The notes under the pieces are model-generated. The model saw only the letters and a program-made list of their open reading frames with translations. It was not told the DNA's origin and did no database searches. Below are positions 3,111-12,693 of a DNA stretch of 64,000 nt, in pieces (positions within the stretch are counted from its first letter, which is position 1; every line of letters starts with the position of its first letter). The translations under genes were made by a program, and so were the position numbers. This stretch comes from Candidatus Bathyarchaeota archaeon (GTDB lineage: Archaea > Thermoproteota > Bathyarchaeia > Bathyarchaeales > Bathycorpusculaceae). The stretch is taken from the NCBI GenBank assembly GCA_963770935.1, contig CAVYRJ010000008.1:192001-256000 (forward strand), in the 5' to 3' direction.

Positions 3111-5993
3111 TTATTCGATGTAGATTGCAGGTTGATAGGGCAGTGCCATCGCTGCACGGTTCTTGGGGTCAATGCGGTTATTATCGTCCTCGCTGAAAAC
3201 AGATACTTCTGCGTTGAAACGTTGCCTAAAAAAACCTGCTGTAGAAGCCAAAATCGACAGTTCGTCCATTGCTTTGATTTTTTGCATGTTGACTTTGCGT
3301 TCGCCAGAAACCTTTGTTAAAGATTTAATAATTCTTGGAACCATGCCTGCAATATTTTTCATATACGGCTTTAGATCTTTGTCCGCAGCGAAATCCTTCA
3401 TTAGCTCACTGATTTTTGTTTCGCCGGCAATTGTTTTTTCAAGGATTTTTAGGTAAACTTTCCATTTCGATGGTGCCGCAGTGTAGTAGCAGATGCGTTT
3501 TGGCGTTATCTTCGTAGCTTTTATGATGTTTGTTGTGTCGTTGATTATATCGGTGATTAGAGTTTCTTGTTCCTCAGCGGCAATATCAATCTTGCTTATG
3601 TCAAAGACTGGCCATTTTGCAACGCTTATGAATCCTTCTTCTCCAGTTTGGCTCCAAAGCTCCTCACAGAGAAAAGGCGCGAAAGGCGAAAGCATCTTTA
3701 ACCATACTTTCACCGCATCACTCAGAGCTTTGGCCTCTGTGTTGCCTTTCCGTTGAATATACCAGCGCAGATCATTCCAAGTCTCAAACAACGCAACCTG
3801 CAATGCAGTTCGGGTTTTAAGTTCATCTAAGTTTGCTGTGACTTCTTTTATTCGACATTGAAGCTTACTAGTAAGCCACCGTTCCAAGGCTGTGTTTTCT
3901 TGGTTTTTGGCAGAGGCAATTATGCCGCTTGCAAATCCAACTAAAGCTTCAAACTTGGTTTGGAGGTCACTTACGTTTTCAGCGCGCCAATCAGGATCAT
4001 CCATGCCCTCAGCACCCAACAACAAACCACATCTTGTTGCGTCGGCGCCATATTTTTCGACAGCTCCCTTCACGGTTATGAAATTGCCTTTGCTTTTGTG
4101 CATTCCTTGTCCTTCGATCATAAGCATGCCGTTAACGCCGATGGCTTTAGGCCAATGTTCTGGTGGAAAGAGCGCGGCATGATGGAAGATACAGAATGAG
4201 AGATGATTTGGTACGAGTTCTTTAGCGGAATTCCTCAAATCAAATGGGTACCAGTACAGGAATTCAGATCGCATTGCATTGAGCAAGGTAGCACTTAATC
4301 CAGTAGTGATTCCAAGTTCAGTTGCATCGCCTTTACCATAGAAAAGAAAATCGAAAACTTCAGGTGTCAACGCTTCAGCGTTAACGTTATTCTGTTTTAT
4401 GTGTTTGTTTACGGTATAGAATGCCATATAGACCGTTGAGTCACTTAATGTTTCGATTATCCAGCCTTTCCCCCAGGGCAGCGGGGTTCCAAAACCAGTT
4501 GTTCTTGCACAAGCCCACTCGCGAAGCCAATCTATAACTGTGTAGAAATTTTGCTTTGCTGAATTGGGATAAATTGTCATTTGAGCGACGACTTGTTTGG
4601 CTTTCTCCTTCCATTGTGGCTCTGAATAGTTTAGGAACCATTGATCAGAGAGGATTTTTACTAAACACTGCGTCATGCACCGGCAAACGACAGGTTCAGC
4701 TAAATCGTACATGGAATCTGCAGCGCCAAGTTTGCGGAAATCAGTTATCAATATGTCTTTGGCTTCGCGGACAGTTTTTCCTGCATATGGTCCGCAGTTT
4801 GCCTTCAGGATGCCACTATGGAATTCTTTTTTGTACAGTTCTTTTGTGGCTTGTTCACCTTTGGGGTCGTTTTGGTCTTTTATGCCCATTTTCTCGACTA
4901 TTTCAACTGCTGGAAACTCACCAAAGCCCTCGACTTTAATGATCGAAATTGGCTTAATTTGCAGTACTGCAGCTGGATCCATGTCGAACTGTGCAAGGAC
5001 TTCTGGTTTTTGCTGCAGATCGCGCAGTGCTAGCCAATCGTATGGTGCGTGGGCTGGAACGCTGTAAACAACGCCTGTGGCGGTTTTGGGGTCAACAAAC
5101 CAGCCGGGTAAAATTGGAAACTTTAGTTTTGTGATAGGATTCTCAAACCATTTGCCAATGAGTTCTTTGCCTTGGAAGTTGCGCTTTACTTCAACTTTTC
5201 TTTCCTGCTCTTTTAGCTTCTCTGATGCTTCTTGGCTAATTATCCAGTTTTCGCCATTAACGGTTGCTTCCACATAGGTAACGTCAGGGTTAATCCATAT
5301 GTTAGTTACACCATAGATTGTTTCAGGGCGGAAAGTTGCCGCGGGCAGAAACGTTTTTTCATCTAGCTTATACTTTATCAATGTATATTCTTCTGCGGTG
5401 ACGCCTTCGCCGCTTTGACGGTCATGGTCACCTGTGGGGCTCTTATCTTTGGGACACCAAACTACTGGGTGCGTACCACGTGTAACATAACCTTTTTCTT
5501 TAAGGTTCTTGTATTGCCACTCGATGAATTTTTGGTAAGTGGGCATCACTGTTGTGAATTCACGTCGCCAATCCACTGAGAAACCGATGCTTTTAGCGGC
5601 TAAGCGACCTTCGTTAGTGTAGTATTGAGCCATATAGATCGGGTCAACGAATTTCTTGAGTTCTTCTTCAGGCACCCCATCGACCTCTCTTAGGACTTTA
5701 ATATATGCTTCATCACCCCGAGCCACACGTTGGCTTGCTCCAAGCAGCGGTTGACCAGTCCAGTGCCAACCCCAAGGCCAAAGCACATTATAACCCTGCA
5801 TACGCTTAAACCGAGCATAAGCATCCACACGAGAAGCGGAGAAAGCATGCCCAACATGAAGTGGACCATTCATGTACGGATATGGAAAAGTCACCATCTT
5901 TTTCTGCCTGTTCGGATCAGGGTCAGCCTCGAAAACATGGGCGTTTTCCCATTTGGCTTGCCATTTCTGCTCGAATTGCTTGGTTTGGCTCAT
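3111..5993 (-). CDS. leuS: Leucine--tRNA ligase, archaeal type
   Basis: TFPYPYMNGPLHVGH (HIGH), GMHKSKGN (KMSKS-like), ATFRPET editing domain, 960 aa. Confidence 0.97.
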   Translation of the reverse strand: MSQTKQFEQKWQAKWENAHVFEADPDPNRQKKMVTFPYPYMNGPLHVGHAFSASRVDAYARFKRMQGYNVLWPWGWHWTGQPLLGASQRVARGDEAYIKVLREVDGVPEEELKKFVDPIYMAQYYTNEGRLAAKSIGFSVDWRREFTTVMPTYQKFIEWQYKNLKEKGYVTRGTHPVVWCPKDKSPTGDHDRQSGEGVTAEEYTLIKYKLDEKTFLPAATFRPETIYGVTNIWINPDVTYVEATVNGENWIISQEASEKLKEQERKVEVKRNFQGKELIGKWFENPITKLKFPILPGWFVDPKTATGVVYSVPAHAPYDWLALRDLQQKPEVLAQFDMDPAAVLQIKPISIIKVEGFGEFPAVEIVEKMGIKDQNDPKGEQATKELYKKEFHSGILKANCGPYAGKTVREAKDILITDFRKLGAADSMYDLAEPVVCRCMTQCLVKILSDQWFLNYSEPQWKEKAKQVVAQMTIYPNSAKQNFYTVIDWLREWACARTTGFGTPLPWGKGWIIETLSDSTVYMAFYTVNKHIKQNNVNAEALTPEVFDFLFYGKGDATELGITTGLSATLLNAMRSEFLYWYPFDLRNSAKELVPNHLSFCIFHHAALFPPEHWPKAIGVNGMLMIEGQGMHKSKGNFITVKGAVEKYGADATRCGLLLGAEGMDDPDWRAENVSDLQTKFEALVGFASGIIASAKNQENTALERWLTSKLQCRIKEVTANLDELKTRTALQVALFETWNDLRWYIQRKGNTEAKALSDAVKVWLKMLSPFAPFLCEELWSQTGEEGFISVAKWPVFDISKIDIAAEEQETLITDIINDTTNIIKATKITPKRICYYTAAPSKWKVYLKILEKTIAGETKISELMKDFAADKDLKPYMKNIAGMVPRIIKSLTKVSGERKVNMQKIKAMDELSILASTAGFFRQRFNAEVSVFSEDDNNRIDPKNRAAMALPYQPAIYIE

Positions 5994-6100
5994 GAAACCT
6001 TCTGATTAAAGCTTTAGCTATTAAGAGTTTTTCTTGCGTGCATGGTCAAGTGACCTAAAAATACAAATACAAAGACAAACAAAAGGTGCATCGATCACAC

Positions 6101-7099
6101 ATGTCCACCGACGAGGAGTTAATGCAGGAAGTTCAGACCTTTCTAGTTGAGCGCTCAAAAAAGGCCATTTTCTTGGCGAGGGAAGCTATCTTTAAAGAAC
6201 AAATTAAGTACACGCCCCTCCTTGAAGCCCTCACTTATTTTATGCAGGAAGTATGGACAAATGCAGCTCCTCACCCAACTCTTTTGTCCTTAACCTGTGA
6301 AGCAGTCGGGGGAAACCCTGATGCAATAATTGAAATAAGTGCAGCAATGGTGCTGTTGACTGGTGCAGCAGATATCCACGATGACATTATCGACCAATCA
6401 ATAACAAAAGATTCTAAACCTACAGTTTACGGCAAATACGGCAAAGACATTGCAGTCATAGCAGGAGATGTATTGTGGTTCAAAGGCATAATGATGTTAA
6501 ACGAGGCGTGTGAATCGTTCCAAAAAAATAAAAGATATGAAATTCTTGAGATAGCAAAGCAATCCTTCTTTGATATTGGTAGTGCAGAAGCCAACGAAGC
6601 AAATCAAAGAAGAAACCTTGATCTGCAACCTCAGAAATCTCTAGAAATTATTAGAATGAAGGCTTCAGTTGCGGGGGCAGCGGCCAAGATTGGTGCTATT
6701 GTTGGAGGTGGAACCGAGGAAGAAGTTAAAAGCCTAGGCGACTTTGGAGATAACTTGGGATTTCTGATGACTATCCGTGACGAATTTGTAGATGTTTTTG
6801 AGGCAGATGAGTTGAAGAACAGGTTTACTAATGAGTGTTTGCCGCTTCCTATTTTGTACGCTTTCCAAAACATAGTCTTAAAAAGACAAATTTTGGATAT
6901 ACTTAAACAGGCAGACATTAAAGAATCTGATTCAGAAAAAATTGCGGAACTAGTCATTAACTCCCCTCAATTACATAAGCTTACAGGTATCATGAAATCA
7001 TCAATGAAAATAGCTACCGAGAGTTTAACAAATATGAAAAAGAACAAAAATATATTTAATCAATTATTGAAGTCTGCGCTACAAGATTTGCCTTCTTAA
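6101..7099 (+). CDS. Isoprenyl diphosphate synthase-fold (polyprenyl synthetase family) protein A with degenerate motifs; candidate ComQ-like peptide Trp-prenyltransferase
   Basis: First Asp-rich motif IHDDIID and AVIAGD intact; no GKRxR, no RR after DDxxD (QSITKDSKPT), GQxxD replaced by AEANE, second motif RDEFVD. ATG at 6101 preferred over GTG 6086. Confidence 0.85.
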   Translation: MSTDEELMQEVQTFLVERSKKAIFLAREAIFKEQIKYTPLLEALTYFMQEVWTNAAPHPTLLSLTCEAVGGNPDAIIEISAAMVLLTGAADIHDDIIDQSITKDSKPTVYGKYGKDIAVIAGDVLWFKGIMMLNEACESFQKNKRYEILEIAKQSFFDIGSAEANEANQRRNLDLQPQKSLEIIRMKASVAGAAAKIGAIVGGGTEEEVKSLGDFGDNLGFLMTIRDEFVDVFEADELKNRFTNECLPLPILYAFQNIVLKRQILDILKQADIKESDSEKIAELVINSPQLHKLTGIMKSSMKIATESLTNMKKNKNIFNQLLKSALQDLPS

Positions 7100-7100
7100 A

Positions 7101-7119
7101 ATAAATAAAGAAAAAAAAG
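7101..7119 (-). terminator. Oligo(T) archaeal terminator for the minus-strand micro-peptide gene
   Basis: Minus strand reads TTTTTTTTCTTTATTTAT a few nt after the peptide stop at 7128. Confidence 0.5.
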
Positions 7120-7127
7120 TTAAGAAT

Positions 7128-7169
7128 TTACCACCAGTACATTCTTACAGGTCTAATTGGTTTTTTCGT
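7128..7169 (-). CDS. Micro-peptide A, (M)KKPIRPVRMYWW, 13 aa; candidate precursor with ACG at the start position
   Basis: Minus strand: CAGGAGG AAAGGAAT ACG AAA AAA CCA ATT AGA CCT GTA AGA ATG TAC TGG TGG TAA. Strong SD 8 nt before ACG, upstream TATA-like box, downstream T-run; resembles peptide B. Confidence 0.55.
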   Translation of the reverse strand, partial: TKKPIRPVRMYWW

Positions 7170-7176
7170 ATTCCTT

Positions 7177-7222
7177 TCCTCCTGTATTGTTGTTGAACGT
7201 ATAAACTTTAAAAGGTTTGCGG
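7177..7222 (-). promoter_or_regulatory. BRE/TATA-like promoter and SD of micro-peptide A
   Basis: Minus strand CCGCAAACCTTTTAAAG (TATA ~7206-7213), then about 25 nt to ACAGGAGG. Confidence 0.5.
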
Positions 7223-7340
7223 TAACTAGCCTCTATGTCAAGACATTTATCAATATTAGCAATCTTGTTTATTACTACTCAAAGCTTATCTTAACCGAAA
7301 TCTCAAATACTTTCTAACTGAACTCGCACGATAGAATTTA

Positions 7341-8666
7341 GTGTTAATCATGGGTAAAACTGGAAAACTCACAATGGATTTGCGCCTAACTCTAGGAAGT
7401 GCCTTTTTAATCGTAAATGCGCTCGTTTGGTATAGTGTTGCAACTAATATTTTGCCATCTATAATAATGAAAGACTCACAAAGTCTATTGTTATGGAGTT
7501 TTCATTTTGTTGCACTAATTATTTCAATTTTTATCGGTATCCTGTTGACTAAAAAAATTGGCACCCGATTCTTGCTTTTGATATGGACGAGTATTGGAAT
7601 TTTTTCTCCTCTAACTTTGTTTGCTATCGATAGTGAAGGTATTCCGCCCTTAGCTATGGTACTTTTCGGTGTATCTCTTGGGTTGGGTATACCGAGTTGC
7701 ATGGCTTACTTTTCTAGATCTACTCAGGCTAACAATCGGGGAAAATTCGCCGGTTTGATAATGCTATTAATTGGCATATTTAGTGTTTTACTGATTGTAT
7801 TAAGTGCAAATAAAATAGAGCCAACAGCCATTATTTTGATGATCTGGCGAACATTTGGGCTGCTATTTTTTCTTGTCCCAAATATAAAGCAACCTATAAT
7901 ACCTGATAAGCACTCAGTATCATTTTCTTTTGTTCTGAAACAAAGGTCCTTCATCTTATACTTGATTCCATGGCTGATGTTTTCTTTAGTTGGTTATCTA
8001 AGTGTGCCTGTGCAGGAAAGCGTTTTAGCGCAACAAGAAATTAATATTCTCAGGCTTGCCGAAAGTATTATTGGAAGTGTTTTTTCCGTAATTACTGGAT
8101 TGCTGATAGGTGTTGTGGGCAGGAAACGTATTGCAATTATTGCATTTGTTTTGGTTGGGATCGAGTTTGCGATTTTAGGAATGTATCCAGACCAAATGGC
8201 AGGATGGATGATCTATACAGTACTTAACGGGGCAGCATGGGGAACGTTCTATGTTCTGTTTGTAATGTCAATTTGGGGAGATTTGAGCCAAAATACTTCG
8301 ATAGAAAAGTACTATGCCCTTGGAATCATTCCGTTCTTTATATCCAAGTATTTGTCGCTAGTGCTAGGAGAAAATGTAGCTGCTGCAGTTTCTGTAAACA
8401 CTTTATTTTCATTCACTGCGTTTTTCCTTTTTCTAGCTGTTTTGCCCTTGGTTTATGCGCCTGAGACTTTGCCTGAAAAAGTCATGAAGGATAGGGATCT
8501 TAAAAGTTACATCGAGAACGCAAAAAAGAAAGCCCAAAAAGATGCTGATAAAGCAGCTAATAACAAAGAGAAAAAATTGAAAAAAGTGTCCGAGGAGAAA
8601 ACTCAAGATGCCAAACCTGATAAGGCCTATGAAGAAGCAAAAAGACTTGCAGAAAAATACTACTAA
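7341..8666 (+). CDS. MFS-type transporter A with charged C-terminal tail
   Basis: About 12 hydrophobic segments, GRKR loop motif, APETLPEK after the last helix, tail YEEAKRLAEKYY. Confidence 0.85.
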   Translation: MLIMGKTGKLTMDLRLTLGSAFLIVNALVWYSVATNILPSIIMKDSQSLLLWSFHFVALIISIFIGILLTKKIGTRFLLLIWTSIGIFSPLTLFAIDSEGIPPLAMVLFGVSLGLGIPSCMAYFSRSTQANNRGKFAGLIMLLIGIFSVLLIVLSANKIEPTAIILMIWRTFGLLFFLVPNIKQPIIPDKHSVSFSFVLKQRSFILYLIPWLMFSLVGYLSVPVQESVLAQQEINILRLAESIIGSVFSVITGLLIGVVGRKRIAIIAFVLVGIEFAILGMYPDQMAGWMIYTVLNGAAWGTFYVLFVMSIWGDLSQNTSIEKYYALGIIPFFISKYLSLVLGENVAAAVSVNTLFSFTAFFLFLAVLPLVYAPETLPEKVMKDRDLKSYIENAKKKAQKDADKAANNKEKKLKKVSEEKTQDAKPDKAYEEAKRLAEKYY

Positions 8667-8870
8667 AACGTGGATGATGATTTCACGGAGATTTGTTGGG
8701 GCAAAATAGAATTGAACATGTACCTGCGGCTGTTTGGATTTAATCAATAATCTTTCTTCTTAATGATGAATCCCCAGCTAAAGCTAAATAATCAAGTATT
8801 TTTGTTGTATTGCTGTTCTACTGTTGTTTTGTTGGATAACTATCTCAAAACCGAATGTTTTGGTGTGTAC

Positions 8871-8917
8871 TTATATATTACGAGTCACGACTTGTTTCAT
8901 AAGGGTAAGAGGTGAAA
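8871..8917 (+). promoter_or_regulatory. TATA box and SD of micro-peptide B
   Basis: TTATATAT at 8871-8878; GAGGTGA at 8909-8915, 5 nt before ATG 8921. Confidence 0.6.
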
Positions 8918-8920
8918 TAC

Positions 8921-8974
8921 ATGAAACAAAAACAAGCAATCCGAGCTAAACCCATAAATTGGGGTGGATGGTAA
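8921..8974 (+). CDS. Micro-peptide B, MKQKQAIRAKPINWGGW, 17 aa; candidate ComX-like precursor
   Basis: Canonical archaeal SD GAGGTGA, ATG, own TATA box; lies directly upstream of prenyltransferase B; Trp at -4 and -1. Confidence 0.75.
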   Translation: MKQKQAIRAKPINWGGW

Positions 8975-9078
8975 AAAAATCCAGTGCTGAAAAGAAACTT
9001 TCTCACACCAAATTTTGATTTTGAATCTTAATTTTAAAATCTTAACTTACAAATAGTGAAGGTTCTGATTTTACCTGT

Positions 9079-10086
9079 ATGCCAACTAGCTCCCTTACCC
9101 AGAATGCGTTATGCATAATTCAAGGTAAGGGTCATTCTGCGATATCTCAAGCTTGCCAAAAAATATTCCAAAAACAATATGATAGAGGAATAATGCGTGA
9201 AGCATTACACTATTATGCGAAAATGGTTCTTCCAAATGTTCTGCCGATTTTTCCAGCTCTAGGTTACTTATCTAGCAAAGCCGTGGGCATGGTCCCCGAA
9301 AACTACAACTCGGTAGCAAGGGCTATGGTGCTTATAACATCCTCAGGAGATATCCACGATGACATCGTTGACAATTCAAGGAAAAAGTTTGGACGAAAAA
9401 CGGTTTTTGGCAAATTCGGGAAAGATATTGCTATTTTGGCAGGCGATGTATTGCTTATTCAGGGAACAGCAGACCTTCAAAGCGAATGCTACAACCTGTC
9501 AAGCAGGCACAGAAAGGCCATAGTGGATTTGGTTGCTGCCTCGATGTTCGAAATCGTGACAGCTGAAGCACTAGAGATTTCCTTGTGTGATAAAGTTAAT
9601 GCGTCTCCAGAGGAGTATTTTGAGGTCATCAGAATGAAAGGTAGTGTTGGAGAGCTTCATTGCAAAATCGGTGCAATAATCGGTGGCGGAAGTCAAGAAG
9701 CGATCGATGACTTAGGACATTATGGCAGGGTAATCGGGATCTTGTCGACTCTGAAAGAGGAATTTGTTGATATGACAATGTTGGAAGAGTTTAAGCACCG
9801 AATCAAGTACGAATTACCGCCATATCCCATGCTTTGTGCCATGAAGAATAAAGCTCTGAAAAAAAAAATTGTTGGCATCACCGAGGGGCCCAAGTTTTTA
9901 GAGAATGATTTGCAGGCAATTGAGGAAATGGTACTAGGTTCGATAGAAGTAAAAAGGCTCATAGCCGAATTTAGGGACTTAGGCAGAAAAGAATTGACTA
10001 CAAACTTGTTGTTAAAAGAAAATAAAAGAGCAAGTGAGTTGTCGTTTATACTTGAGGCTTTGACAGTTGAATTGTCGCTTGTTTAG
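9079..10086 (+). CDS. Isoprenyl diphosphate synthase-fold protein B (paralogue of A) with degenerate motifs; candidate ComQ-like prenyltransferase
   Basis: IHDDIVD and AILAGD intact; NSRKKFGRKT instead of RRG, AEALE instead of GQxxD, second motif LKEEFVD, no GKRxR. Confidence 0.85.
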   Translation: MPTSSLTQNALCIIQGKGHSAISQACQKIFQKQYDRGIMREALHYYAKMVLPNVLPIFPALGYLSSKAVGMVPENYNSVARAMVLITSSGDIHDDIVDNSRKKFGRKTVFGKFGKDIAILAGDVLLIQGTADLQSECYNLSSRHRKAIVDLVAASMFEIVTAEALEISLCDKVNASPEEYFEVIRMKGSVGELHCKIGAIIGGGSQEAIDDLGHYGRVIGILSTLKEEFVDMTMLEEFKHRIKYELPPYPMLCAMKNKALKKKIVGITEGPKFLENDLQAIEEMVLGSIEVKRLIAEFRDLGRKELTTNLLLKENKRASELSFILEALTVELSLV

Positions 10087-10188
10087 CTATTTATCTTGAA
10101 TATGGATTCAATCACTGATGTATTATTTCTTAATGTTTAATAATACTTACACTTATCGTTATCCTGTGCACCCAAAACGCTAAGAATA

Positions 10189-11536
10189 ATCGGTAAAAAA
10201 ATATCGTCAATCTCAAAAGAAACGTTAGTAAGCACTTTTTTAGTAGCGAACGCTTTTGTTTGGTATCTTTGCGGATTCGGGTATTTGCAAGACATAACAA
10301 GTACGAATTTTAGCGGTAATTCACTACTATTAATGGTTAGCGGCAATTTCGTCAGCTTGGTTTTATCTGCCTTTGCTTCTTCCCTTTTAACAAGCAAATT
10401 CAAGCATAGATTAAATTTTCTCAAATATTGGAGTATTGCAGGTGCATCACTTTCAATCATTTTCGCTATCATAAACCTGCAAGAGCTTACAAATATAATA
10501 GCAATTGCAATCATAATTGGTTCGTACTTCGGTATAGGAATGCCCGTTTGCATGGGCTACTACGCAAATTCAACTAAGCCTCAAAACCGAGCAAAACTAA
10601 GTGGAATCATAATACTTTTTATAGGAATAGGTTATCCAGCTATCTCTATAATTGGAAACAATGCACCGCTCTTTTTAGCCGCCACTTTGGCGGTATGGCG
10701 AATCTCGAGTTTATTTCTTATTCGATATATTAAGCCCGCTGAGCAACAAGAAGAGTCAAAACAGAGGGTTACTTACCGGTCAATAATTACAAACAAGAGT
10801 TTTGTTCTCTATGCTCTCCCATGGCTAATGTTTTCTCTCATAAACGACCTGACAATGCAGTTGAATACTAGCTGACTTTAGTAGCAGTACATTTCCCCAG
10901 GCTTTTGGAAATAACTTTCTGCTTATAGAAATGGTCTTAGCTGGGGCTTCAGCAATTATTTGTGGGCTTTTAGCTGATAGGAAAGGTCGAAAACGATTGG
11001 CATTGATCGGCTTTGTACTTTTAGGCGTTGGGTATGCTTCTTTAGGGATTTTTACCGGCAACTACCTTGCAGCCTGGTTTTATGTATGTGTTGACGGTAT
11101 CGCGTGGGGTGCTTTTTCAATGTTGTTTTTAGTAACTCTCTGGGGGGATATTGCTCAGGGAAAAAGCGCTGAGAAATATTATGTTCTTGGAGTCCTTCCA
11201 TATTTGTTTTCAAACCTAGCTCGCGTTTTAGCTGGAACTTACATATCAGCTAATATGATAGAGGGAACGGCTTTCTCGTTTGCCAGCTTCTTTCTATTCA
11301 TTGCAATACTGCCTATAGCATTTGCTCCAGAGACCTTGTCTGAAAAAATAATAAAGAAACTAGACCTCAATAGCTATGTCAACCAAGCATTGGAGAAAGC
11401 AAAGAAAAAGAATGCAAAAAATGTGGAGCCAGGTCAAAGAGTTGTATCACAGAATGAAATGACAAGCAATGATGAAGCCGATGATACGTCAAAAGAGTAC
11501 GAAGAAGCAAAGAAGTTGGCGGAAAAATACTATTAA
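10189..11536 (+). CDS. MFS-type transporter B (paralogue of A); +1 frameshift at ~10873; no canonical start codon
   Basis: ORFs 10285-10875 and 10931-11536 join; frame is open upstream to IIGKKISSISKETLVSTFLVANAFVWY, matching IMGK...SAFLIVNALVWY of A; tail YEEAKKLAEKYY. Confidence 0.8.
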
Positions 11537-11561: not shown

Positions 11562-12693
11562 ATGTTCTTTCACGTGATACTTACCAGTGACTGCAATTTG
11601 CAGTGCAAGTACTGTTTTGGCGAGAGCCTTGATGACTTTGACGAAGAATTCGGCGACGATATAGAAGTCGACTACGATTTGCCACGCAACCTCAGCTATG
11701 ATTTAGAGCCTCTGAACAAGTTCTGCCGACAAGACCCTAATTGTGTTTTGACCTTCTATGGTGGAGAACCCCTGCTGCAGATGGATAAACTTAGGCAAAT
11801 TATGAATAAAGTGACCCCTAAACATTATATGATGCAAACAAACGGTTTACTTCTTGACAAACTTGAACCAAAATATGTTAACCGTTTCCACACTATCCTT
11901 GTCTCGATTGATGGGCAAGAAGACCTGACGGATGCTTATCGAGGAGCAGGAACTTACCGGAAAGTCATCGAGAACCTAAAATTAATCAAGAAAAACGGAT
12001 TTAAGGGAGAATTAATTGCTCGCATGACCATAATGGAGCAAACCGACATAGAAAAACAAGTCAAATATCTCTTGAACAACCCGGATTTTTCGTTTACCTC
12101 GATTCATTGGCAACTTAACGCTGGTTTCTGGGGCAATGACTATCAAAGGCGCAACTTTGAGGAGTGGACCAAAACCAGCTACATTCCAGGGGTTGAAAGG
12201 CTGGTGCATTTTTGGGTTGACCAAATCCAAGATAAGGGCACTGTGCTTAAACTATACCCAATTTTGGGCATAGCAAACTCGCTTTTGCATGAAGAGAAAA
12301 AATGCCTGATGCGTTGCGGAGGCGGCTGGATAAACTACGCTATCCAAACTGACGGCTACATTATTCCTTGCCCAACCATGTGGGGGATGAAGGAATACTA
12401 TCTTGGGCATATAAAAGATGCCGACCCTCTAAAACTTGAGACGAATTTTCGTAGACGAGAAACCTTGTGTGGACTGCAAAAATCTGGATATTTGCGGGGG
12501 AAGATGCCTATACACTAATATAACCAAAAGATGGAGCGATGATGCTTACAATAAAGTTTGCAACACGGTGGAACAATTAATCAAAGCAGTAGAATGCGAA
12601 GTCCCACGCATCCGAAGGTTGATCAGTAAGGGAAAAGTTGGGATAGATGACTTTGATTATGTAAAATATAATGGTGCTGAAATCATACCTTAG
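11562..12693 (+). CDS. Radical SAM/SPASM protein, resembling the AF0577 (TIGR04084) putative peptide-modifying family; frameshift at ~12435
   Basis: CNLQCKYC, FYGGEP, CGGG...DGYIIPCP, and in the second frame CVDCKNLDICGGRC...C; ends YNGAEIIP. Confidence 0.88.

Follow-up and report, generated by a model that had tools for sequence, protein, structure and literature searches.

A conserved 17-residue peptide gene next to a polyprenyl synthase-like gene in Bathyarchaeia, possibly encoding the precursor of a tryptophan-prenylated peptide

The window analysed here is a stretch of 64,000 nucleotides from a Candidatus Bathyarchaeota archaeon (assembly GCA_963770935.1, contig CAVYRJ010000008.1, positions 192,001 to 256,000). 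It contains a very small gene, PEP1b, which encodes a peptide of 17 amino acids and lies directly 5' of PTb, a gene for a prenyltransferase (PT)-like protein with a trans-isoprenyl diphosphate synthase (trans-IDS) fold. An initial annotation, which had been made from the sequence alone, called this protein enzyme B and suggested that the small open reading frame (ORF) in front of it encodes the precursor of a modified peptide. The features at the centre of this study are:

8871..8878, plus strand: TATA-like box TTATATAT, approximately 43 nt 5' of the PEP1b ATG
8909..8915, plus strand: Shine-Dalgarno-like GAGGTGA, followed by 5 nt (AATAC) and the PEP1b ATG
8921..8974 (stop included), plus strand: PEP1b, peptide gene of 17 amino acids, encoding MKQKQAIRAKPINWGGW
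9013..9048, plus strand: T-rich stretch (TTTTGATTTTG), then the direct repeat AATCTTAAYTT x2, between PEP1b and PTb
9079..10086, plus strand: PTb, trans-IDS-fold prenyltransferase-like protein (Pfam PF00348, 70.8 bits)

PEP1b starts with an ATG at 8921-8923, its 17 codons correspond to MKQKQAIRAKPINWGGW, and it ends with a TAA at 8972-8974, which leaves a gap of 104 nt to the ATG of PTb at 9079. The TATA box at 8871, the GAGGTGA 5 nt before the ATG, the ORF of 17 amino acids and the stop codon 104 nt before enzyme B had already been pointed out in the initial annotation, and all of them could be confirmed in the sequence. Its claim that the expression signals are complete needs qualification. 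It holds for the Shine-Dalgarno sequence, which is kept in seven of seven aligned loci, but only weakly for the TATA box: among the aligned loci, TTATATAT is common to the window and L036 only, and in L031, L032, L038, L033 and L034 the respective stretch falls inside the 3' end of another upstream gene. TTATATAT is a putative promoter element of PEP1b. Taken singly, the motifs are unremarkable. The box TTATATAT is observed two times in the window compared to 1.55 expected occurrences. The combination GAGGTGA-N4-8-ATG is observed four times compared to 0.42 expected, but we set this enrichment aside as evidence, because a long ORF follows at only one of the three other sites. It is the conservation that lifts PEP1b above chance. 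Between PEP1b and PTb, the two copies of AATCTTAAYTT (9024-9048) are 14 nt apart and are kept in the four closest loci (window, L031, L032 and L038). Judged from its sequence, the region 9013..9048 might possibly combine a terminator with a promoter or operator of PTb.

Homologues of PTb were sought in 61 related genomes, and the 30 best loci were inspected for upstream small ORFs. Eight of these 30 loci possess an ATG-started ORF of like design on the same strand, 87-142 nt 5' of the PTb homologue. Examples of the encoded peptides are MNQKRAIKAKAPANWGGW, MNQKRAIKAKAPVNWGGW, MNNKKLIRAKGNIYWGGWG and MDKKRAKPVTFGGW, and further ones are MNKKIIRAKPIQAGWY, MNQKKAITRATPANWGGW and MNAKRIVQAKPATGGWY. 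In a DNA alignment of seven loci, the PEP1b ORF, AGAGGTGA with GAGGTGA and the spacing are kept throughout. The same is true for the ATG and the terminal TGG-GGN-GGN-TGG-TAA, where the Gly codons vary synonymously, and the gene upstream of this block in the relatives is not the one found in the window. Among eight PEP1b orthologues, the pairwise differences at codon positions 1, 2 and 3 amount to 96, 93 and 197, respectively, and the differing codon pairs comprise 105 synonymous and 151 non-synonymous ones.

A peptide profile (A2) was built from 10 peptides and compared with 25,670 small ORFs (71 sources, 542 kb). It yielded 17 distinct matches at E<0.001, every one of which adjoins a PT gene, and seven of the 17 are sequences that did not belong to the training set. 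The search of all six frames of the 61 whole genomes with A2 resulted in 10 matches in 10 genomes, all of them located directly 5' of a PTb orthologue; two of these (in G010 and G014) are likewise non-training sequences. In the genome of the window, which comprises 1.98 Mb on 18 contigs, only three frames end with GGW-stop.

The view of the initial annotation that the ORF is a genuine small gene is borne out by its presence in all seven aligned loci, by the third-position excess and by the ten out of ten profile matches beside enzyme-B orthologues. The search for small ORFs beside enzyme-B orthologues, which it had proposed as a check, did recover homologous ORFs, and PEP1b is almost certainly a real conserved gene. 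[quoted passage not shown] An MFS transporter gene is found behind the PT gene in 48 of 56 cases with a flank of at least 1.5 kb. A functional tie of PEP1b to PT and MFS appears highly probable.

Within the PEP1b clade, only the residues M1, G16 and W17 are invariant. The basic N-terminal half and the C-terminal Trp, which the initial annotation had emphasized, are conserved features of the peptide, and the expected conservation of the Trp residues in related genomes applies to the last Trp. It does not apply to the Trp at position -4, which is replaced by Phe in L034 and is missing in L035 and L037. The C-terminal ends of eight PEP1-type rows read GGW in five cases and GGWG, GGWY and AGWY in the remaining ones. 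In a FastTree phylogeny of 63 PT proteins, the upstream same-strand peptide type occurs in two sub-clades only, both of them within one half of the tree, and PTa, the paralogue of PTb in the window, belongs to the other half. As a side observation, the PTb orthologue of L038 (G010:C1) is broken by several stop codons, and the peptide gene upstream of it is intact and equals that of G023.

PTa and the other features in the neighbourhood of PEP1b and PTb are located as follows:

3111-5993, minus strand: leucyl-tRNA synthetase (LeuRS) gene, archaeal-type, divergent from PTa
6086..7099, plus strand: PTa ('enzyme A'), which shares 38% identity and the motif pattern with its paralogue PTb
7128..7169, minus strand: PEP2a, gene for the family-type peptide (M)KKPIRPVRMYWW that converges with PTa, 29 nt past its stop
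7206..7222, minus strand: BRE/TATA-like box (TFB recognition element and TATA box) CCGCAAACCTTTTAAAG, upstream of PEP2a, assigned by eye
7341..8666, plus strand: MFSa, transporter of module A
10186..11536, plus strand: MFSb, transporter of module B, split by a frameshift into the ORFs 10285-10875 and 10931-11536
11562..12693, plus strand: radical SAM/SPASM gene of the TIGR04084 family, with a frameshift near 12442 that splits it

The order on the plus strand is PTa, MFSa, PEP1b, PTb, MFSb and the radical SAM gene, with PEP2a on the minus strand between PTa and MFSa. The window holds two modules, A (PTa, PEP2a and MFSa) and B (PEP1b, PTb and MFSb). With regard to the LeuRS gene, we noticed that its matches are split into overlapping pieces in L034, L035 and L039; this points to frameshift errors in part of the related genomes.

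The arrangement of module A is the commoner one in the family: between PT and MFS there is a small ORF in opposite orientation, at a distance of 5-120 nt 3' of PT. Peptides of this kind are MKANNKVIRTGGWY, MNNKKLTRTFGGW and MKTKIPIRHAGWF as well as MKAQKIIRGIGW, MAKKPVRIAGWR and MEKKRRPKPIRKAGWL. For a family-wide count we used pre-set criteria, namely a length of 9-25 amino acids, at least three Lys or Arg among the first 10 residues, a Trp within the last three residues and no acidic residue beyond position 2. A qualifying ORF was found at 40 of 73 PT genes, upstream on the same strand in 14 cases and downstream on the opposite strand in 32 cases, some genes having both. By chance, the 226 qualifying ORFs in the 1.98 Mb of the host genome (G000) would correspond to approximately 0.03 per PT gene or 2.3 in 73. 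When the criteria were relaxed post hoc, so as to admit acidic residues, a start at ACG and a Trp more distant from the C-terminus, eight Trp-containing peptides were added. All in all, the peptides of the family have 10-20 amino acids. Their N-terminal part is basic and contains an (I/V/P)(I/V)R motif, and it is followed by a short tail, in which one of the last three residues is usually a Trp.

At those loci which possess both peptide types, the last four to five residues are identical within the locus in six of six cases, and the tails vary between loci. Examples of such pairs are QAGWI/QAGWI, TFGGW/TFGGW and VVGWL/VVGWL; the peptide pair of L039, judged by eye, shares its tail in a like manner. 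This pattern fits with one enzyme per locus that reads the C-terminal tail, or with a recent duplication within the locus.

PEP2a itself has an ACG where other loci have an ATG, with a GGAGGA 7 nt upstream. The same AAT-ACG-AAA-AAA is present in a second species, at the orthologous locus L039 of G012, where it continues with KKPLGPIRGVWF. The ACG may point to non-AUG initiation in an archaeon or to a dead start codon. The opposite-strand peptide gene of L039 appears to be frameshifted in an A-run. In the window and in four of the other inspected loci, namely L039 (a PTa-type module), L021, L014 and L020, an identical or similar box, CCG(C/A)AAA(C/T)CTTTTAA, stands approximately 50 nt 5' of the PEP2 gene, and the box CCGCAAACCTTTTAAAG is a candidate promoter element of PEP2 genes.

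What kind of enzymes are PTa and PTb? With regard to the polyprenyl synthase scores within the genome, the one canonical copy, on contig C14, reaches 214 bits, compared to 88 bits in PTa and 71 bits in PTb. For a motif analysis, 70 sequences of the family were aligned with the canonical synthase of the genome. The first aspartate-rich motif (FARM; DiHDDIID, DDxxD) is conserved in all 70 sequences, and the AGD motif is conserved, too. The canonical synthase possesses all the motifs for binding of isopentenyl diphosphate (IPP), i.e. GGKRxRP, KT, FQxxDDxxD and GK..GK. The family lacks GGKRxRP and GK..GK, its KT is cut to K (the Thr being gone and the Lys kept), and FQxxDDxxD, the site of the second aspartate-rich motif (SARM), is replaced by (T/S/L/A/I)-x-(R/K)-(D/E)-E-F-x-D. 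Since the FARM is kept and the IPP-binding motifs are gone, these proteins have probably retained binding of the prenyl donor and lost that of IPP.

An AlphaFold2 (AF2) model of PTb based on 63 sequences has the trans-IDS fold with a pLDDT of 95.6. The best Foldseek hits in the PDB are geranylgeranyl diphosphate (GGPP) and hexaprenyl synthases (TM ~0.8), and the indole prenyltransferase Ord1 is found at rank 31 with a TM-score by query (TMq) of 0.71. In view of this ranking, the fold is not able to tell peptide prenyltransferases from ordinary synthases. A Pfam scan of the long or fused representatives P0001, P0006, P0008, P0129 and P0114 detected polyprenyl_synt only, plus SQS_PSY in one of them, and is uninformative with regard to function.

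The family profile matched 673 representatives (50% identity clusters) among 1.84 billion proteins at E<=1e-30, and 13,620 representatives, with ordinary synthases among them, at E<=1e-10. Within the class, 62 of 301 sampled genomes match the PT family at E<=1e-25, and these matches are concentrated in two taxonomic families, f1 (36 of 48 genomes) and f7 (12 of 12). In the ESM-Atlas, the closest clusters consist of polyprenyl synthetases and come for the most part from Candidatus Bathyarchaeota, and a search of genome contigs with the single protein PTb gave one match, an unrelated locus of a Bacteroides metagenome-assembled genome with 27% identity. Family searches for AmoA and McrA, made for orientation, were negative in both cases; for AmoA, the control gave no signal either.

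A small precursor gene that is conserved beside a modifying enzyme and a transporter, as found here, is a trait of RiPP modules, and three peptide prenyltransferases related to the trans-IDS, namely ComQ, the P domain of ChrPC and PalQ, are described as acting on Trp (PMC13290415). In the following, ComQ, PalQ and StheQ were compared with the archaeal family by the motifs quoted in the respective papers. The initial annotation had drawn an analogy to ComX. This was right in kind, but PalQ/PalX from Paenibacillus alvei is nearer with regard to the acceptor geometry, i.e. a C-terminal Trp in a GW or GGW context. In PalQ/PalX as well as in the archaeal module an isoprenoid-synthase-derived enzyme adjoins a small precursor gene. 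The acceptor in PalX is a C-terminal Trp, for which a preceding Gly is favourable, and PEP1b ends with GGW. PalQ is reported to require a C-terminal Trp and to favour GW or GGW ends (PMC13290415, PMC10853753). A C-terminal extension of its substrate abolishes activity, and a conserved Gln197 stands beside its SARM (PMC10853753); this residue is described as forming a hydrogen bond with the indole NH. The chemistry of this type is an Mg2+-dependent prenyl transfer to C3 of a peptide Trp.

There are also clear differences. The precursor PalX is of the NHLP type and has a long leader, whereas PEP1b has 17 amino acids in total (10-20 in the family, compared to 55-100 in the bacterial systems), and the neighbour of PalQ is a histidine kinase, where an MFS transporter is found here. 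The Gln beside the DxxxD SARM of PalQ corresponds to Thr, Ser, Leu, Ala or Ile in the family, with (D/E)ExxD as SARM; at the position of the Gln of the canonical FQ, PTa and PTb both have a Thr. Furthermore, the host is an archaeon, and some of the archaeal relatives have one or two residues past the Trp.

The ComQ/ComX system of Bacillus and the StheQ/StheX system of Sphaerobacter share with PTb and PEP1b the trans-IDS fold, the kept FARM, the loss of the second metal and IPP site, and a neighbouring gene for a peptide with a Trp near the C-terminus. As outlined in the StheQ study (bioRxiv 10.64898/2026.08.29.745113), the ComQ family is defined by the FARM and a pseudo-SARM NDxxx with a critical Asn (N215 in StheQ, N186 in ComQ), StheQ has one Mg2+ site, at the FARM only, and the substrate Trp is the second residue from the C-terminus. 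The Asn of NDxxx is gone in the archaeal family, where (D/E)-E-F-x-D occupies the aligned positions, as EEFVD in the case of PTb and as DEFVD in the case of PTa. ComX and StheX have 55-73 amino acids, a long leader and an internal modified Trp; the 17-residue PEP1b has its invariant Trp at the very end. Besides, the partners ComP and ComA of the ComQXPA system are missing at the window locus.

Ord1 (PDB 9V4G-J) is a relative of PTb by sequence (phmmer E ~5e-9) and structure. It is described as farnesylating free tryptophan and not a peptide (PMC13290415), and its key Gln is not conserved in the PT family. PTb is closer to archaeal GGPP synthases than to Ord1 (1wy0: E 1.2e-15, TMq 0.81). With canonical archaeal GGPP synthases, i.e. 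1wy0 and the genome's own copy, the PT family has fold, FARM and Pfam PF00348 in common, but it lacks the IPP-binding motifs, and the Pfam scores of PTb and PTa are 71-88 bits compared to 214 bits of the housekeeping copy. Since both the Asn of ComQ and the Gln of PalQ are missing, the motifs quoted in the literature place the archaeal enzymes on a new branch that belongs neither to ComQ nor to PalQ. The best reading of the sequences is an archaeal PalQ/ComQ-like module for a Trp-prenylated peptide with ultra-short precursors, the chemistry being that expected from these bacterial relatives. In a full-text literature search we found no report of an archaeal Trp-prenylated peptide system, although supplementary tables of sequence similarity networks may hold archaeal sequences.

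From the observed conservation of the gene, its linkage to PT and MFS, and the motif pattern and fold of the enzyme, we infer the following course of events. PEP1b would be translated from its own small transcript, and the peptide would be recognized by PTb, a trans-IDS derivative that would bind an allylic prenyl diphosphate via DDxxD and Mg2+ but no longer IPP. PTb would then move the prenyl group, probably a C15-C20 chain from the archaeal isoprenoid pool, onto the indole of W17, the invariant Trp that follows Gly-Gly at the C-terminus. The adjacent MFS transporter would export the resulting cationic lipopeptide, which might act outside the cell or at the membrane, either as a signal or as an antagonist. 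The initial annotation had taken the basic part as a leader and about PINWGGW as the core, but a classical leader that is cleaved off is doubtful, since there are family members of only 10-13 amino acids and since the module has no protease gene. Prenylation of the C-terminal Trp of PEP1b by PTb seems somewhat better than an even bet; this estimate rests on the loss of motifs and on the bacterial precedents, with the Trp-less relatives as a caveat. As a whole, the combination of PEP1b as precursor, PTb as the enzyme that prenylates its Trp and MFS-mediated export is the best explanation of the locus, and we hold it with modest confidence.

Several observations weigh against this explanation. 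Under the pre-set criteria, 33 of the 73 PT genes are without a qualifying ORF. Moreover, the criteria relaxed post hoc brought up homologous small ORFs without any Trp in L019 (MKAKKTIPVRTLPP), L071 (MAKRVKKVPIRAGP) and L076 (MKAKKRVVPVRVIPI). All three are of the kind that lies 3' of PT in opposite orientation, and all encode the basic KK..P(I/V)R motif; two of them end with Pro and one with Ile. Consequently, Trp cannot be the universal acceptor. In several relatives, one or two residues extend beyond the Trp (GGWY, GGWG, AGWPH), which PalQ would reject. The residues for Trp recognition in the known enzymes (Q197 of PalQ, the Gln of Ord1 and the Asn of ComQ) are missing, so that, on sequence grounds, any Trp recognition by the archaeal enzymes must differ. 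The counts given above also overstate the statistical support, because the related genomes are not independent of each other.

The state of module B in the window has to be considered here, too. PEP1b and PTb are intact, but coordinates modulo 3 reveal a +1 frameshift in MFSb (near 10874) and another one in the radical SAM gene (near 12442), where the orthologues are in frame. Contigs of 90-99% identical relatives from soil metagenomes have one base fewer at 10874 (two contigs) and at 12442 or 12443 (one contig each), so the two frameshifts are either assembly errors or strain-specific lesions. The N-terminus of MFSb as expected from its orthologues (10186-10200) lacks an ATG, GTG or TTG and reads AGA-ATA-ATC-GGT, at a place where L032 has ATG-AAA-ATA and L031 has ACA-ATC-ACT. 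Use of the first canonical start, the TTG at 10285, would cost the first transmembrane helix. In view of the frameshift and the missing start, module B has perhaps decayed in part, or the assembly contains an error.

The most serious alternative is that the peptide is real and part of the module, but that the acceptor is something other than its Trp. A different residue or a terminus of the peptide might be modified, or PTb might prenylate a small molecule or lipid; in the latter case, the basic peptide could be membrane-active, or it could work with the MFS transporter as its partner or regulator. The three homologous ORFs without Trp are in line with this, as is the fact that the constant feature of the family is the basic (I/V/P)(I/V)R motif and not a fixed position of the Trp; besides, the Gln and Asn that recognize Trp in the known enzymes are missing. 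Nevertheless, a Trp is present in the last three residues at 40 of 73 PT genes by the pre-set criteria and is invariant in the PEP1b clade, the C-terminal tails co-vary within loci, and the characterised trans-IDS-like peptide prenyltransferases covered in PMC13290415 all use Trp. We regard this alternative, in either form, as unlikely. The peptide might also be a substrate of the TIGR04084 radical SAM/SPASM protein, which would cross-link its Trp as in RiPPs of the streptide or darobactin type, alone or in addition to prenylation. Many radical SAM/SPASM maturases modify Trp in short peptides, the TIGR04084 family matches peptide maturases such as PapB with 93 bits, and such a gene comes after PT and MFS, in the same orientation, in 24 of the 43 cases that have a flank of at least 2.9 kb, including the window. 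However, the gene is above the cut-off in 48 of the 61 related genomes, among them 11 of the 19 without a PT match, and six loci in other genome contexts (L031-L034, L036 and L038) have peptide, PT and MFS together but no such gene within 18 kb. Since its presence is independent of PT and peptide and since it is absent from these six loci, the radical SAM gene is probably a lineage-wide neighbour and not part of the module core. Its adjacency goes along with the conserved LeuRS neighbourhood and could be accounted for by shared ancestry, so that synteny with LeuRS probably holds the gene next to, but outside, the core module. While a second modification by this enzyme is possible at some loci, it is quite improbable that PEP1b is its substrate.

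A true member of the ComQXPA quorum-sensing systems, consisting of a ComX, a ComQ and a receptor of the ComP/ComA type, would likewise have a polyprenyl-synthase homologue that adjoins a small peptide with Trp. But the pseudo-SARM NDxxx is missing in PTb, the precursor has 17 amino acids instead of 55-70, and the conserved Trp is terminal and not internal. The nine larger ORFs between 3111 and 15904 encode LeuRS, two PT, two MFS, the radical SAM protein, MetW, MetX and a pyridoxal phosphate (PLP) enzyme, and Pfam and NCBIfam revealed no histidine kinase or response regulator among these nine ORFs of the locus. Membership in ComQXPA is thus contradicted by both the motif and the genomic context, and we consider it very improbable. 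Finally, PEP1b could be a chance ORF or a cis-regulatory upstream ORF, i.e. a leader of PTb with Trp codons, that gives rise to no functional peptide. Two Trp codons near its end and the T-rich stretch past its stop would suit such a leader. Yet the conservation acts at the amino acid level, with an excess of changes at the third codon position, and the commoner, convergent arrangement of the family places the peptide gene on the opposite strand, where it is unable to act as a leader. A scan of 6900-9200 against Rfam was negative, and with z = -1.41 the RNA fold of 8895-9078 is inconspicuous. This makes a chance or leader ORF extremely improbable.

If PTb does prenylate PEP1b, the following would apply to the biology of these archaea. 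Archaea of this class, presumably Bathyarchaeia, would make a hitherto unrecognized family of ribosomal lipopeptides from precursors of 10-20 residues that are essentially leaderless, with an independently evolved branch of the trans-IDS that prenylates Trp and an MFS transporter that exports the product; we see the odds of this reading as evenly balanced. Isoprenoid-synthase-like enzymes that prenylate Trp in ribosomal peptides have been described for a few bacterial systems (ComQ, PalQ, StheQ and ChrPC). The module described here would be the first Trp-prenylated RiPP in the archaeal domain and possibly a peptide pheromone, and since the known Trp-recognition residues are missing, it would represent a second solution to peptide prenylation. 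The PT enzymes might then also be usable as compact tools for C-terminal lipidation. Peptide genes of this size escape standard gene callers, and one of them may even start at an ACG. Archaea that are known mostly from metagenomes would thus have a gene-encoded secreted lipopeptide, which may serve as a signal or as an antagonist.

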